Positions 2 through 48,856 are shown, numbered from the stretch's first letter. The stretch: DNA of 64,000 nucleotides from Escherichia coli (GCF_003334255.1 NZ_QOWU01000008.1); one strand, 5' to 3'. Numbers and translations: made by a program. Notes: a model not told the origin generated them from the sequence alone.

Positions 2-694
2 TCTGACCGGGTGCAGAACGGCATGTTTGGTGCGTGTCTGATGGGTAATGCGCAGCTGGTTGCCGACTGCGTGAAAGCGATGCGCGATGTGGTGTCGATT
101 CCGGTGACGGTGAAAACGCGTATTGGCATCGACGACCAGGACAGCTATGAATTTCTCTGCGATTTCATCAATACCGTTTCCGGCAAAGGCGAGTGTGAGA
201 TGTTCATCATCCACGCACGTAAAGCCTGGCTTTCGGGGTTAAGCCCGAAAGAAAACCGTGAAATCCCGCCGCTCGATTATCCGCGTGTGTATCAACTGAA
301 GCGTGACTTTCCGCATCTGACAATGTCGATTAACGGTGGTATCAAGTCGCTGGAAGAGGCCAAAGCACACCTGCAACATATGGATGGCGTGATGGTCGGG
401 CGCGAGGCGTATCAGAATCCGGGTATTCTGGCGGCGGTAGACCGGGAGATCTTTGGTTCCTCGGATACCGATGCCGATCCGGTGGCGGTAGTGCGCGCCA
501 TGTATCCGTACATTGAGCGTGAACTCAGCCAGGGGACGTATCTCGGCCATATTACCCGGCATATGTTGGGCTTGTTCCAGGGTATTCCTGGCGCGCGGCA
601 GTGGCGGCGTTATTTAAGTGAAAATGCCCATAAAGCGGGTGCAGACATTAATGTGCTGGAACACGCGCTCAAACTGGTGGCGGATAAGCGTTAA
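2..694 (+). CDS. dusA: tRNA-dihydrouridine synthase A, 3' portion (5' end lies outside window)
   Basis: ORF 11..694 with no start inside the window; translation recognised as Dus-family flavoenzyme C-terminus; lies upstream of pspG-qor-dnaB as in E. coli. Confidence 0.85.
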
Positions 695-776
695 CTTTTC
701 ACCAAAAAGTAGTCAAATTCACCACGCCCTGCGCACCGTCGCGGGGCGTTTTGCTGTTAAATCAATAGATTATTTT

Positions 777-791
777 TGGCATGATTCTTGT
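777..791 (+). promoter_or_regulatory. candidate sigma54 (-24/-12) promoter for pspG: TGGCAT-N5-TTGT
   Basis: Motif TGGCATGATTCTTGT about 37 bp upstream of the pspG ATG; GG..GT spacing as in the pspA sigma54 promoter; an IHF-like motif AATCAATAGATTA sits at 760..772. Confidence 0.45.
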
Positions 792-827
792 AATGCCAGC
801 AAGAGATTTCATATTTGGGAGAGCATC

Positions 828-1070
828 ATGCTGGAACTACTTTTTGTGATTGGCTTTTTTGTCATGCTGATGGTCACCGGCGTTTCGTTGCTGGGCATTA
901 TCGCCGCGCTGGTTGTGGCGACGGCCATTATGTTCCTCGGCGGTATGCTGGCATTGATGATTAAGTTGCTGCCGTGGTTACTACTGGCGATTGCGGTGGT
1001 GTGGGTTATTAAGGCGATTAAAGCACCAAAAGTGCCGAAATATCAGCGTTATGACCGCTGGCGTTACTAA
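828..1070 (+). CDS. pspG: phage-shock protein G, small inner-membrane protein (80 aa)
   Basis: Internal ATG of ORF 618..1070; translation MLELLFVIGFFVMLMVTGVSLLG... is hydrophobic and matches PspG; the 5' extension of the track ORF overlaps dusA and was rejected. Confidence 0.8.
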   Translation: MLELLFVIGFFVMLMVTGVSLLGIIAALVVATAIMFLGGMLALMIKLLPWLLLAIAVVWVIKAIKAPKVPKYQRYDRWRY

Positions 1071-1205
1071 GGGATTGTGCGGATGATCACAACCTAAGGT
1101 TTTATCCTTAGAACAAAATAGGAATTGATAATCAAATCTGTCACTATTGCGCCTCTAACAGATTCATCGTGCTGTACCCTACATACAGCCGAACTATAAA
1201 AAGAA

Positions 1206-1228
1206 AGGGCTTCCCAGGTGGAAGCCCT
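1206..1228 (-). terminator. hairpin downstream of qor (AGGGCTTCCcaggtGGAAGCCCT), flanked by A/T runs
   Basis: Perfect inverted repeat immediately 3' of the qor stop codon. Confidence 0.6.
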
Positions 1229-1235
1229 ATTTCTT

Positions 1236-2219
1236 TTATGGAATCAGCAGGCTGGAACCTTGCGTCGCCCGGCTTTCCAGAATCTCATGCGCACGCTGCG
1301 CATCCTTCAGCGGATATTTCTGCTGCTCGGCGACATCGACCTTAATCACACCGCTGGCAATCAAAGAGAACAGTTCATTACTGGCCTCGGTTAATTCCTC
1401 CCGCGTGGTGATATAGCCTTGCAGGGAAGGGCGTGTCACATACAACGAGCCTTTTTGATTGAGAATGCCTAAGTTCACACCGGTAACCGCACCTGATGAG
1501 TTGCCAAAACTGACCATTAAGCCGCGGCGTTGCAGGCAATCCAGCGACCGTTCCCAGGTGTCTCTGCCCACGGAATCGTACACCACGCGCACTTTCTTAC
1601 CGCCGGTGATCTCTTTTAACCGCTCGACCAGATCCTCTTCACGATAGTTAATAACCTGCCACGCGCCCGCTTTTAGCGCGCTTTGCGCTTTTTGCGCGGT
1701 TCCTACGGTGCCGATAAGTTTCGCGCCCAGGGCTTTTGCCCACTGGCAGGCAATTAAGCCAACGCCGCCAGCCGCTGCGTGGAACAGGAACTGTTCATCG
1801 GGTTTAATTTCATAGGTTTTGCGCAGCAGATAATAAACCGTTAAGCCTTTCAGGAAGGATGCCGCAGCTTGCTCAAAAGAAATTGCCGCAGGCAGAATCG
1901 CCGCTTTATCCGCAATAATGTTATGCACAGAGCTGTAAGCGCCTAACGCCGACTGCGCATAGACTACACGATCGCCTGCCTTAATATGCTTTACACCACT
2001 GCCGACTTTACTCACGATGCCTGCTGCTTCGGTGCCTAATCCGCTGGGTAGCGATGGCGGCGGGTAAAGGCCGCTGCGGATATATGTGTCGATAAAATTG
2101 ATGCCGATGGCTTTATTTTCGACCTGGATTTCATTCTCCGCCGGATCGGCAGGAGTGAACTCTACGGCTTGAAGTACTTCCGGGCCACCGTGCTTGTGAA
2201 ATTCAATTCGTGTTGCCAT
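1236..2219 (-). CDS. qorA: NADPH:quinone oxidoreductase (zeta-crystallin family), 327 aa
   Basis: ORF 1236..2327 trimmed to MATRIEFHKHGG...; medium-chain dehydrogenase fold with AAGGVG motif. Confidence 0.9.
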   Translation of the reverse strand: MATRIEFHKHGGPEVLQAVEFTPADPAENEIQVENKAIGINFIDTYIRSGLYPPPSLPSGLGTEAAGIVSKVGSGVKHIKAGDRVVYAQSALGAYSSVHNIIADKAAILPAAISFEQAAASFLKGLTVYYLLRKTYEIKPDEQFLFHAAAGGVGLIACQWAKALGAKLIGTVGTAQKAQSALKAGAWQVINYREEDLVERLKEITGGKKVRVVYDSVGRDTWERSLDCLQRRGLMVSFGNSSGAVTGVNLGILNQKGSLYVTRPSLQGYITTREELTEASNELFSLIASGVIKVDVAEQQKYPLKDAQRAHEILESRATQGSSLLIP

Positions 2220-5101: not shown

Positions 5102-6295
5102 GTGTTTCAAAAAGTTGACGCCTACGCTGGCGACCCGATTCTTACGCTTATGGAGCGTTTTAAAGAAGACCCTCGCAGCGACAAAGTGAATTTAAGTATC
5201 GGTCTGTACTACAACGAAGACGGAATTATTCCACAACTGCAAGCCGTGGCGGAGGCGGAAGCGCGCCTGAATGCGCAGCCTCATGGCGCTTCGCTTTATT
5301 TACCGATGGAAGGGCTTAACTGCTATCGCCATGCCATTGCGCCGCTGCTGTTTGGTGCGGACCATCCGGTACTGAAACAACAGCGCGTAGCAACCATTCA
5401 AACCCTTGGCGGCTCCGGGGCATTGAAAGTGGGCGCGGATTTCCTGAAACGCTACTTCCCGGAATCAGGCGTCTGGGTCAGCGATCCTACCTGGGAAAAC
5501 CACGTAGCAATATTCGCCGGGGCTGGATTCGAAGTGAGTACTTACCCCTGGTATGACGAAGCGACTAACGGCGTGCGCTTTAATGACCTGTTGGCGACGC
5601 TGAAAACATTACCTGCCCGCAGTATTGTGTTGCTGCATCCATGTTGCCACAACCCAACGGGTGCCGATCTCACTAATGATCAGTGGGATGCGGTGATTGA
5701 AATTCTCAAAGCCCGCGAGCTTATTCCATTCCTCGATATTGCCTATCAAGGATTTGGTGCCGGTATGGAAGAGGATGCCTACGCTATTCGCGCCATTGCC
5801 AGCGCTGGATTACCCGCTCTGGTGAGCAATTCGTTCTCGAAAATTTTCTCCCTTTACGGCGAGCGCGTCGGCGGACTTTCTGTTATGTGTGAAGATGCCG
5901 AAGCCGCTGGCCGCGTACTGGGGCAATTGAAAGCAACAGTTCGCCGCAACTACTCCAGCCCGCCGAATTTTGGTGCGCAGGTGGTGGCTGCAGTGCTGAA
6001 TGACGAGGCATTGAAAGCCAGCTGGCTGGCGGAAGTAGAAGAGATGCGTACTCGCATTCTGGCAATGCGTCAGGAATTGGTGAAGGTATTAAGCACAGAG
6101 ATGCCAGAACGCAATTTCGATTATCTGCTTAATCAGCGCGGCATGTTCAGTTATACCGGTTTAAGTGCCGCTCAGGTTGACCGACTACGTGAAGAATTTG
6201 GTGTCTATCTCATCGCCAGCGGTCGCATGTGTGTCGCCGGGTTAAATACGGCAAATGTACAACGTGTGGCAAAGGCGTTTGCTGCGGTGATGTAA
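5102..6295 (+). CDS. tyrB: aromatic-amino-acid aminotransferase, 397 aa, GTG start
   Basis: ORF 5060..6295 trimmed to GTG at 5102 ([14 protein letters not shown]...); class-I aminotransferase with the PLP-lysine motif [14 protein letters not shown]. Confidence 0.9.
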
Positions 6296-46364: not shown

Positions 46365-47345
46365 TTACTTACTGATAAGACGGTCAAGGGCGACAGCCGC
46401 GATAATTAATCCGCCCATCACCACCAGTTGGTAATAGGTTTGTACCTGCAAAATATTCAGACCGTTGTTGATGGTGCCGATGATCAACCCGCCAATCACC
46501 ACAGAGAAAATGCGCCCCTTGCCGCCGAAGAAACTGGTGCCGCCAATGATGGCGCTGGCAATGGCATAGGTTTCAAAACCCATACCGGCAAGCGGTTCTG
46601 CGGCACCGAGTCGTGCAGTTGAGACGACGCCTGCCAGACCTGCACAAACACCGGAGATGATAAACACCACCAGGATGTGGAATTTCACGTCAATCCCGGA
46701 ATAGAACGCCGAATTTTTGTTGCCGCCCAGTGCGTAGATGTTGCGCCCGAGCCGCATACGCGTTGTCAGAAACCAAAGGATGAGCGCGACAATTAGTGAG
46801 AAGATAACGGGGACAGGTATCCCAATTACGCTGGCGGCAAAGAAGTTCACGAAGTCAAATGAGAAGCCGTATACCGAGTTGGCATCGGAGATCACCAGCG
46901 TGATCCCACGGAAAATCGCGTTGGTGCCAAGGGTGATGATGAACGGGTGTAGCCCCGTCCAGTTGACCAGGCAGCCGTTGATCGCCCCCAGTGCGCCGCC
47001 AACCAGTACACCGCCAATCATCGCTGCGAGAAACGGGTCAACACCTGCCAACATCAGTTTGGCGGTCACCATACCGGAAAGCGCCAGAATCGCGCCAACC
47101 GAGAGGTCGATACCAGCGACCAGGATAGCGAAAAACTCGCCCATGCCGATCAATACCGTCACGGAGCTTTGAACAAAAATCTGGGTAATATTATTGGTGG
47201 TCAGAAAATATTCTGGTGACAGCGAACCAAAGATGGCGACGATGATCGCCAGGATAAAAAAGGTGCCGTATTTATCCCAGAACAGCGCAAAGTTGAACGG
47301 TTTCTTCTCGCTCGCTTCGCTTTTTACTCTTGTGGTAAAGCCCAT
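46365..47345 (-). CDS. alsC: D-allose ABC transporter permease (326 aa)
   Basis: Ribose-type ABC permease topology. Confidence 0.9.
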   Translation of the reverse strand: MGFTTRVKSEASEKKPFNFALFWDKYGTFFILAIIVAIFGSLSPEYFLTTNNITQIFVQSSVTVLIGMGEFFAILVAGIDLSVGAILALSGMVTAKLMLAGVDPFLAAMIGGVLVGGALGAINGCLVNWTGLHPFIITLGTNAIFRGITLVISDANSVYGFSFDFVNFFAASVIGIPVPVIFSLIVALILWFLTTRMRLGRNIYALGGNKNSAFYSGIDVKFHILVVFIISGVCAGLAGVVSTARLGAAEPLAGMGFETYAIASAIIGGTSFFGGKGRIFSVVIGGLIIGTINNGLNILQVQTYYQLVVMGGLIIAAVALDRLISK

Positions 47346-48856
47346 GCCATAATCTCCTCTTCGCTCATGTCATCGCGATTCGTCAGGATTTGCGTCAGTC
47401 GTCCTTCGCAGAACACGGCGATGCGGTCGCAGACGGTGATAATTTCAGGTAGTTCAGATGACACCATCAGGATGACTTTTCCGTCGTCCGCCAGTTGGCG
47501 CATCACTTTGTAAATTTCGGCTTTCGCGCCAACGTCGATGCCGCGGGTAGGTTCATCGAAAATAATCACTTCCGGGCAACAGCACAGCCATTTGGAGATC
47601 AGGACTTTCTGCTGATTTCCCCCGGAGAGTTCGGTGATATTCTGGTTTACCGAATGACATTTCAGCGCCAGCAGTTCGCGTTGATTTTCAGCGGTACGTT
47701 GCTCGTCAACTTCATGAAACAAGCCCATCGCGCCTTTATAGCCGCCGTCTTTCAGACTGCGGCTGATCGCCATGTTCTGAGCGATGGAAAAGTTGGGGAA
47801 AAAACCGTTATCCCGGCGGCTTTCAGTGATGTAAGCCATCCCTTTTTTCACGGCATCCAGGGGTGAACGTGGAGAGATATCTTTGCCATTAAGACGGATT
47901 TCTCCGCCAGCGCGTTTATCCACGCCAAACAGACAATTCATCAGTTCAGTACGTCCGGAACCGACCAGTCCGGCAAAGCCTAATATTTCTCCCCGGCAGA
48001 CGCTAAATGAGATATCCCGGACCTTTTTTCTGTCACGACTGGTGACGTTCCGCACCTCAAAAACCGTTTCGTGCGCAAGGTTGCTGACATTCTCCTTCAT
48101 CGCGTTAAAACGGTTTTGCAGTTCGCGGCCTACCATCAGACGGACGATATCGTCATTTGACACATCGCTTACTATGCCGCTGCAAACGCTGCTGCCGTCT
48201 TTCATCACCGTATAGCGGTCGCAAATACGGCGAATTTCCGCCAACTTATGCGAGATATAGACGATGGCCGTACCCTCTTTACGCAACTGATTCATGATCA
48301 GAAACAGATAGTCCACCTCTTTATTGGTGAGTGAGGAGGTGGGTTCATCCATGATGATGACTTTGGCATCGAGCATCAGCGTTTTGGCAATTTCTAGCAT
48401 CTGCTTGTGGCTGATAGATAAATTCGCCACTTTCTCATCTAGATCAACTTTCAAGCCCACGCGTAATAACATCATGGCGGCGCGGACACGCATTTCTCGC
48501 CAGTCGATAATATTGACGCCACAGATTTTTTTCGTCAGATGACGACCAATATATAAATTTTCCAGTACGGTTAATTCATCAATAACGCTGAGTTCCTGAT
48601 AAATAATCCCGATACCGAGTTGTGCCGCTAATTTATGATCCAGCTTGTTATAGCTAATGTTATTAATGGTAATGGTGCCTTTGGTCGGCTCATGTATTCC
48701 GGATAAAACTTTCATTAGCGTGGATTTACCCGCGCCATTTTCTCCTAGTAATGCATGTATTTCACCAGGATAAACCGTTAAATTAACCGACTTTAATGCG
48801 TGAACCGGACCAAAGGACTTGCCGATCCCCGCCATCGATATATATGGCGTGGCCAT
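47324..48856 (-). CDS. alsA: D-allose ABC transporter ATP-binding protein, duplicated ABC domains (510 aa)
   Basis: Two nucleotide-binding domains (GENGAGKST Walker A, LSGGNQQK signature). Confidence 0.92.
   Translation of the reverse strand: MATPYISMAGIGKSFGPVHALKSVNLTVYPGEIHALLGENGAGKSTLMKVLSGIHEPTKGTITINNISYNKLDHKLAAQLGIGIIYQELSVIDELTVLENLYIGRHLTKKICGVNIIDWREMRVRAAMMLLRVGLKVDLDEKVANLSISHKQMLEIAKTLMLDAKVIIMDEPTSSLTNKEVDYLFLIMNQLRKEGTAIVYISHKLAEIRRICDRYTVMKDGSSVCSGIVSDVSNDDIVRLMVGRELQNRFNAMKENVSNLAHETVFEVRNVTSRDRKKVRDISFSVCRGEILGFAGLVGSGRTELMNCLFGVDKRAGGEIRLNGKDISPRSPLDAVKKGMAYITESRRDNGFFPNFSIAQNMAISRSLKDGGYKGAMGLFHEVDEQRTAENQRELLALKCHSVNQNITELSGGNQQKVLISKWLCCCPEVIIFDEPTRGIDVGAKAEIYKVMRQLADDGKVILMVSSELPEIITVCDRIAVFCEGRLTQILTNRDDMSEEEIMAWALPQE

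Follow-up and report, generated by a model that had tools for sequence, protein, structure and literature searches.

The pspG regulatory region of Escherichia coli: conserved sigma-54, PspF and putative IHF elements packed around the dusA terminator

The dusA-pspG locus

The region described here lies near the start of a 64,000-nucleotide stretch of Escherichia coli DNA (NZ_QOWU01000008.1, from GCF_003334255.1), which is called the window and is numbered from its first letter. The first 3.7 kb of the window hold the 3' part of dusA, an 80-aa open reading frame (pspG), qorA on the minus strand, and dnaB; the RefSeq genes at the locus are dusA, pspG ('envelope stress response protein PspG', 243 bp) and qorA. 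Positions 600-1250 match E. coli K-12 MG1655 at 100% identity and are found in every one of the 5426 complete E. coli genomes (5426/5426). The dusA and pspG genes are co-oriented, and the gap from the end of dusA to the pspG ATG is 133 nt. This gap is fully occupied: a distal repeat, the PspF enhancer (UAS), the terminator of dusA, a putative IHF core, the promoter, the predicted +1, the Shine-Dalgarno sequence and the ATG follow one another in succession (Table 1). The probability that positions 695-830 make up the entire regulatory region of E. coli pspG, one already characterised, is put at about 0.94. The stress-inducible promoter of pspG is already known, and its regulatory region is an ordinary one.

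Table 1. Features of the dusA-pspG region, in window coordinates
Feature	Position	Strand	Basis and remarks
dusA stop codon TAA	692..694	+	ORF 11-694; RefSeq dusA annotation
Distal conserved element, TTTCACCAAAA	697..707	+	Conservation, repeat pattern; candidate second PspF contact
PspF enhancer (UAS), imperfect inverted repeat, GTAGTCAAATTCACCAC	709..725		PWM, symmetry, fixed spacing
dusA intrinsic terminator	724..753	+	10-bp G+C-rich hairpin (724-749), then TTTT
Putative IHF core, AATCAATAGATTA	760..772	+	Perfect WATCAANNNNTTR match; centre -37
Sigma-54 -24/-12 promoter, TTGGCATGATTCTTGTA	776..792	+	Sequence, conservation, published ChIP-seq motif
Predicted transcription start (G)	803	+	12 nt past the T of the -12 GT; leader of 25 nt
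Shine-Dalgarno sequence, GGGAG	817..821	+	6 nt ahead of the ATG
pspG coding sequence, 80 aa	828..1070	+	TIGR02975; RefSeq; conserved ATGCTGGAA start; stop 1068-1070

The comparisons that follow draw on 80 pspG loci (L004-L083) from distinct species other than E. coli, mainly Enterobacteriaceae but with Yersinia, Rahnella, Biostraticola and Brenneria included, or on 81 sequences when the window is counted in; column conservation refers to an alignment of 74 sequences (Enterobacteriaceae) over the pspG upstream region. What is observed directly comprises the identity to MG1655, the sequence elements with their conservation and their fixed or helically phased spacing, the terminator structure, the nature of the encoded protein and the likeness of the UAS to the pspA sites.

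The pspG reading frame

The 80-aa product scores 90.1 bits against the NCBIfam equivalog TIGR02975 (phageshock_pspG; cutoff 53.7). PspG is an inner-membrane effector of the phage-shock response. GGAG is kept upstream of the ATG in all nine of the other species displayed. The same frame is open farther upstream, and an ORF of 150 aa with a GTG start can be drawn from 618 to 1070. An earlier note on this DNA, made from the sequence alone, had called this long ORF an artefact and had named the 80-aa protein from 828 as the real product; both statements are borne out. The openness of the frame from GTG 618 in this strain is what speaks for a PspG with an N-terminal extension as the real product, but the chance of this is negligible, and the proposal is refuted for practical purposes. 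The extension would cover the 3' end of dusA, the terminator and the promoter, all of it upstream of the predicted transcription start; the PspG family model aligns from residue 72 of the 150-aa form; the in-frame upstream extension runs to just 4-47 codons in 79 of the 80 other species and to 70 codons in the remaining one; and the conserved GGAG and ATGCTGGAA mark the start at 828, where the 80 aa of the RefSeq protein also begin. The 150-aa ORF is an artefact.

On the other side of the gene, the small RNA PspH (b4758), annotated in NC_000913.3, occupies 1127-1237 (+ strand) in the pspG 3' region and ends in a bidirectional terminator hairpin (1206-1228) that is common to the convergent qorA. 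A scan of positions 1-2500 against Rfam returned just sub-threshold ctRNA matches, which fall on this bidirectional terminator. RIL-seq work describes PspH as sponging the sRNA Spf and as possibly having its own promoter (PMC5145812).

The sigma-54 promoter

The promoter string TGGCATGATTCTTGT (777-791) carries GG at 778-779 and GT at 790-791 with 10 nt between them. Read as TGGCAT-N5-TTGTA (777-792), it has the exact -24/-12 spacing of the consensus TGGCAC-N5-TTGCW, with GT in place of GC at -12, and lies 51 nt upstream of the PspG start codon. The string alone is not significant: the degenerate sigma-54 pattern TGGCAYNNNNNTTGY has a single match in the 64-kb window, the one at 777, and shuffled sequences average 0.79. 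The significance of the site comes instead from its context, that is, from the PspG gene that follows, from conservation and from ChIP.

TGGCAY is found upstream of pspG in 78 of the 81 sequences and TTGT at -12 in 75 of the 81; TTGC at -12 occurs in only one (Salmonella enterica subsp. diarizonae, L033). Thus the non-consensus T at -12, which is present in pspA as well, is itself conserved, and its retention suggests that a weak -12 element is under selection in the PspF regulon.

Chromatin immunoprecipitation places sigma-54 on the same string. In the E. coli ChIP-seq survey of Bonocora et al. (2015; PMC4591121, Table 1), peak OS40 is assigned to pspG with the motif TTGGCATGATTCTTGTA and a fold above threshold of 15; the motif is identical to window positions 776-792, and the peak centre maps to about 797. 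The corresponding pspA motif is TTGGCACGCAAATTGTA; both promoters are marked 'C', experimentally confirmed in EcoCyc, PspF is named as the activator of pspA and pspG, and both genes are up-regulated by sigma-54 overexpression (PMC4591121). In a published sigma-54 ChIP-chip study of Salmonella, the orthologous TGGCATGATTTTTGTAAG is enriched 39-fold. The sigma-54-type promoter of GG-N10-GT geometry that the earlier note had picked out at 777-791 as resembling that of pspA is therefore the OS40 motif, and pspA has the same form.

A chance match, with an ordinary sigma-70 promoter or dusA read-through accounting for pspG expression, could draw on the shuffle expectation just given and on the fact that two genes running in the same direction stand so few nucleotides apart. 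It is nonetheless very improbable, and effectively refuted: a terminator supported by covariation (see below) separates dusA from pspG, a scan of the + strand from 500 to 1400 found no sigma-70-like promoter, about 78 of 81 sequences, drawn from many genera, have kept the motif at this position, and published ChIP-seq and ChIP-chip peaks of sigma-54 sit on it.

The +1 at 803 (NC_000913.3 position 4262815) is predicted from geometry. It coincides with the published predicted start, which was placed 19 nt past the motif centre and 25 nt ahead of the ATG (PMC4591121); the start at about 803 given in the earlier note equals this published value, likewise a prediction. The Cappable-seq and SMRT-Cappable-seq supplements are without an entry near the pspG start. 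The pspG promoter segment deleted by Mehta et al. (2013, supplement) is 226 bp long.

Three further observations concern the promoter and the DNA just past it. Citrobacter werkmanii NBRC 105721 (L027) reads TGTCAT at -24 (GG to GT) in an otherwise intact region, perhaps through a sequencing error or as a promoter-down variant. In Salmonella enterica subsp. arizonae and diarizonae (L016 and L033) the distance from TGGC to the ATG is 84-85 nt, against 51 nt here; an insertion of ~33 nt, beginning ...CTGAGTAGACCCGGTAAGCG, lies directly past the promoter. Finally, an inverted repeat of 9 nt (780-788, CATGATTCT, and 822-830, AGCATCATG; 89% complementary) connects the promoter spacer with the start codon. 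As an mRNA structure it was rejected and is probably due to chance: the 5' arm precedes the predicted start, so that the arms cannot pair in the mRNA.

The PspF enhancer

The earlier note had proposed a search of 650..760 for PspF-binding inverted repeats, and an imperfect one is there (709-725): six of its eight mirror pairs are complementary, and its centre lies at about -86 from the predicted start. An enhancer PWM whose training set was confined to pspG upstream regions from outside Escherichia reaches 28.4 bits at 708-727; the next best match in 64 kb reaches 15.9. On the 1.1-kb pspF-pspA region of MG1655, the best four matches of the same PWM are two UAS stretches, each found on both strands. 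These two stretches upstream of pspA we take to be its UAS II and UAS I.

The distance from the UAS to TGGC is 65-66 nt in 74 of the 80 loci and lengthens by two turns (+22), to 87 nt, in Yersinia (L078), Rahnella (L079) and Entomohabitans (L053). The enhancer of Brenneria (L081) is a near-perfect palindrome, TTAGTC-N5-GACTAA. PspF is known to bind the UAS of both the pspA and the pspG promoter; pspA has two UAS and is induced about 100-fold, whereas pspG has one and is induced about 20-fold (Mehta et al. 2013; PMC3709507).

The third-best match of the enhancer matrix in the window (14.1 bits) lies far away, at 48413-48432 on the + strand. This sequence, GATAGATAAATTCGCCACTT, has the 13-mer AAATTCGCCACTT in common with pspA UAS II. 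As a UAS it was rejected and attributed to chance or coding constraint: it lies inside a 510-aa minus-strand ORF (47324-48856), and no sigma-54 motif is nearby, the window having just the one at 777.

A conserved distal repeat

Directly past the dusA stop codon, TTTCACCAAAA shows a column conservation of at least 80-90% in the 74 Enterobacteriaceae sequences, equal to that of the enhancer. Within it, TTCACCA (698-704) repeats, in direct orientation, the half of the enhancer nearer the promoter (718-724) at a separation of exactly 20 bp, which is also the spacing of pspA UAS II and UAS I. The pattern TTCRCYA-N13-TTCRCYA has one match in the window (698-724) and none in 100 shuffles; it has one match in the pspF-pspA region, at 121-147, where it coincides exactly with UAS II plus UAS I, and it recurs at the same position in 53 of the 80 pspG loci. 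This statistic is partly circular, since the pattern was written after both loci had been seen; conservation is the independent evidence.

When the matrix of the proximal site is slid from -40 to +40 over the upstream DNA of all the species, offset -20 gives the highest median. The likeness is confined to one side: in the distal site the median PWM score of the right half is +5.6 bits and that of the left half -16.3 bits, and 33% of the distal sites lie above the 99th percentile of background across all species compared. The proposal of a full second UAS was accordingly dropped, and the distal element is downgraded to a candidate half-site since only its right half is UAS-like. TTCACCA at 698-704 may thus be a PspF half-site. 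The description of pspG as having one UAS leaves this conserved distal half-site unaccounted for.

The dusA terminator in the loop

The stretch from the enhancer to the IHF site is taken up by the intrinsic terminator of dusA, whose first base (724) is also the last base of the proximal TTCACCA repeat. Its hairpin (724-749) was recovered both by a terminator scan and by an inverted-repeat search, and as RNA it folds with -19.1 kcal/mol (z = -2.4). Across the 74 aligned sequences 95.7% of the cells are paired, with compensatory changes in eight of the ten pairs; none of 500 shuffles is as high, and slid controls are 39-56% paired. The terminator lies inside the loop between enhancer and promoter, where it shields pspG from dusA read-through. 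Its T-run would provide the IHF site with an A/T-rich 5' arm: the 5' flank of the core, TTTGCTGTTA (750-759), is A/T at seven of its ten positions and overlaps the T-run.

The putative IHF site

The earlier note had an IHF-like motif at exactly this place, and AATCAATAGATTA is indeed a perfect match to the consensus, with its CAA and TTA conserved. The consensus is short and by itself says little: WATCAANNNNTTR has seven matches in the 64-kb window against 2.3 expected from shuffles. The six other perfect matches begin at window positions 5744, 13301, 14152, 15555, 33422 and 62318. Conservation is more discriminating. Among the 74 aligned sequences, CAA (763-765) and TTA (770-772) are conserved to at least 90%, and the four spacer bases to about 50-60%; the retention of CAA-N4-TTA with a free spacer is the signature that would be expected of an IHF site.

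The core is also held at a fixed distance from the promoter, 14-15 nt ahead of TGGC in about 70 loci and 24-25 nt ahead in five outgroup loci. The more distant core (by about 10 nt, one helical turn) is that of Yersinia, Rahnella, Biostraticola and Brenneria; an IHF-like core about 10 nt further away was also noted in L078, L079, L053 (Entomohabitans), L080, L081 and L083. The architecture of the pspG region thus shifts by whole helical turns: in outgroups the IHF core lies ~10 nt, and in L078, L079 and L053 the enhancer lies 22 nt, further upstream.

IHF is an established cofactor of PspF-dependent transcription, with dependence cited for pspA (PMC2709558 among the sources), and glnAp2 constructs have explored IHF centres from -44 to -69 (PMC2709558). 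Set against that range, the earlier remark that the pspG motif is closer to the promoter than usual is a fair one (core centre -37), although a position near the -24 element is the conserved norm for pspG in the Enterobacteriaceae.

The IHF consensus falls in the 3' half of the IHF footprint; the bend centre at pspG would accordingly be nearer -45, and the predicted footprint would abut the -24 element. In the abstract of Lloyd et al. 2004, yjbO/pspG is reportedly dependent on sigma-54, PspF and IHF.

Might AATCAATAGATTA instead be bound by some other protein, or be an A/T-rich upstream element touched by polymerase, intrinsic bending then accounting for the looping? The unusual nearness of its centre to the -24 element would suit such an element, the consensus is short enough to recur seven times in the window, and some Enterobacter and Klebsiella loci have AACAA or TTCAA, not ATCAA. 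This reading is nevertheless improbable. A nearly invariant CAA and TTA around a free spacer is exactly the IHF pattern, and in distant genera the element shifts by about one helical turn, not by random amounts; the standing of IHF as a cofactor of PspF-dependent transcription and its activation of pspG, as reported in the same 2004 abstract, point the same way. Sequence and conservation, together with that report, support 760-772 as a putative IHF site.

Comparison with pspA and other IHF-assisted promoters

The pspG (yjbO) promoter already known from E. coli, described by Lloyd et al. (2004; J Biol Chem 279:55707), taken up in later work of the Buck laboratory and seen as peak OS40 by Bonocora et al. 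(2015), agrees with the present one in locus, sequence, 17-nt motif and predicted start; it likewise has the PspF enhancer and the 80-aa PspG, and the promoter itself is without difference. Relative to the literature on pspG, with its one UAS, what is added here is the distal TTCACCA repeat and the presence of the dusA terminator in the looped segment.

The pspA promoter, as read in MG1655, has the same TGGCAY-N5-TTGTA with T, not C, at -12, the same pair TTCRCYA-N13-TTCRCYA, the same activator, PspF, and, like pspG, an IHF-like AATCAA core just upstream of the -24 element. A collinear alignment of the two regions can be made. They differ in dimensions. The proximal repeat lies 59 nt from TGGC in pspG and 72 nt in pspA, that is, 13 bp closer in pspG. 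The IHF-like core lies 17 nt from TGGC in pspG, whereas pspA offers two candidates, at 19 nt (one mismatch) and at 34 nt (perfect). The perfect one, AATCAGATCTTTA (L003, 179-191), matches WATCARNNNNTTR and is centred at -54; the other, AATCAAAAAGATA (L003, 194-206), is centred at -39, and it is opposite this one-mismatch core that a global alignment of pspG with pspA places the pspG core. The perfect pspA core is thus 15 nt upstream of the positionally homologous one, so that the two promoters may not be strictly collinear. In pspA, moreover, both enhancer sites are full UAS-like repeats, whereas the distal element of pspG resembles the right half only; and the pspA enhancer also serves the divergent pspF promoter, a place that in pspG is taken by the stop codon and terminator of dusA.

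Other IHF-assisted sigma-54 promoters (nifH, Pu, glnHp2) show the same order of enhancer, IHF bend and -24/-12 element, with looping aided by IHF. The pspG arrangement is very compact by comparison, its enhancer being centred at about -86 and its IHF core at -37.

A model for activation of pspG

The pspG region follows the standard enhancer-dependent scheme of the Psp literature (PMC3709507). Sigma-54 occupancy, PspF dependence and the statement that pspG has one UAS are taken from the literature. In this scheme sigma-54 RNA polymerase would form a closed complex on TTGGCATGATTCTTGTA, and PspF, the enhancer-binding ATPase, would occupy GTAGTCAAATTCACCAC, possibly also touching the TTCACCA 20 bp upstream. 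IHF, bound at AATCAATAGATTA, would bend the short intervening DNA so that PspF meets the polymerase. Membrane stress would free PspF from its inhibitor PspA, and ATP hydrolysis would then open the promoter. Transcription would begin at about 803, with a leader of 25 nt, and the 80-aa PspG would be translated from the ATG at 828. The hairpin of the dusA terminator, inside the loop, would stop read-through from dusA.

An extension of this model is tentative, and we consider it possible but on balance doubtful: the enhancer of pspG may be bipartite as it is in pspA, with 698-704 providing a second PspF contact that sets affinity or hexamer phasing, and the dusA terminator and its T-run may have been put to a second use, as looped spacer and as A/T arm for IHF.

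Significance

As a discovery the region carries little weight: since 2004 the pspG promoter has been a textbook example from the two-promoter PspF regulon, and it is a standard template for sigma-54 biochemistry. The main value of the analysis is that a reading made from sequence only, that of the earlier note, is shown to be accurate, with every coordinate exact; the comparative picture is a modest by-product. The novelty that remains is limited to the conserved distal half-site and to the packing of the dusA terminator inside the loop. If PspF does contact the distal half-site, this would be relevant to the published models of competition between pspA and pspG for a limiting PspF hexamer.
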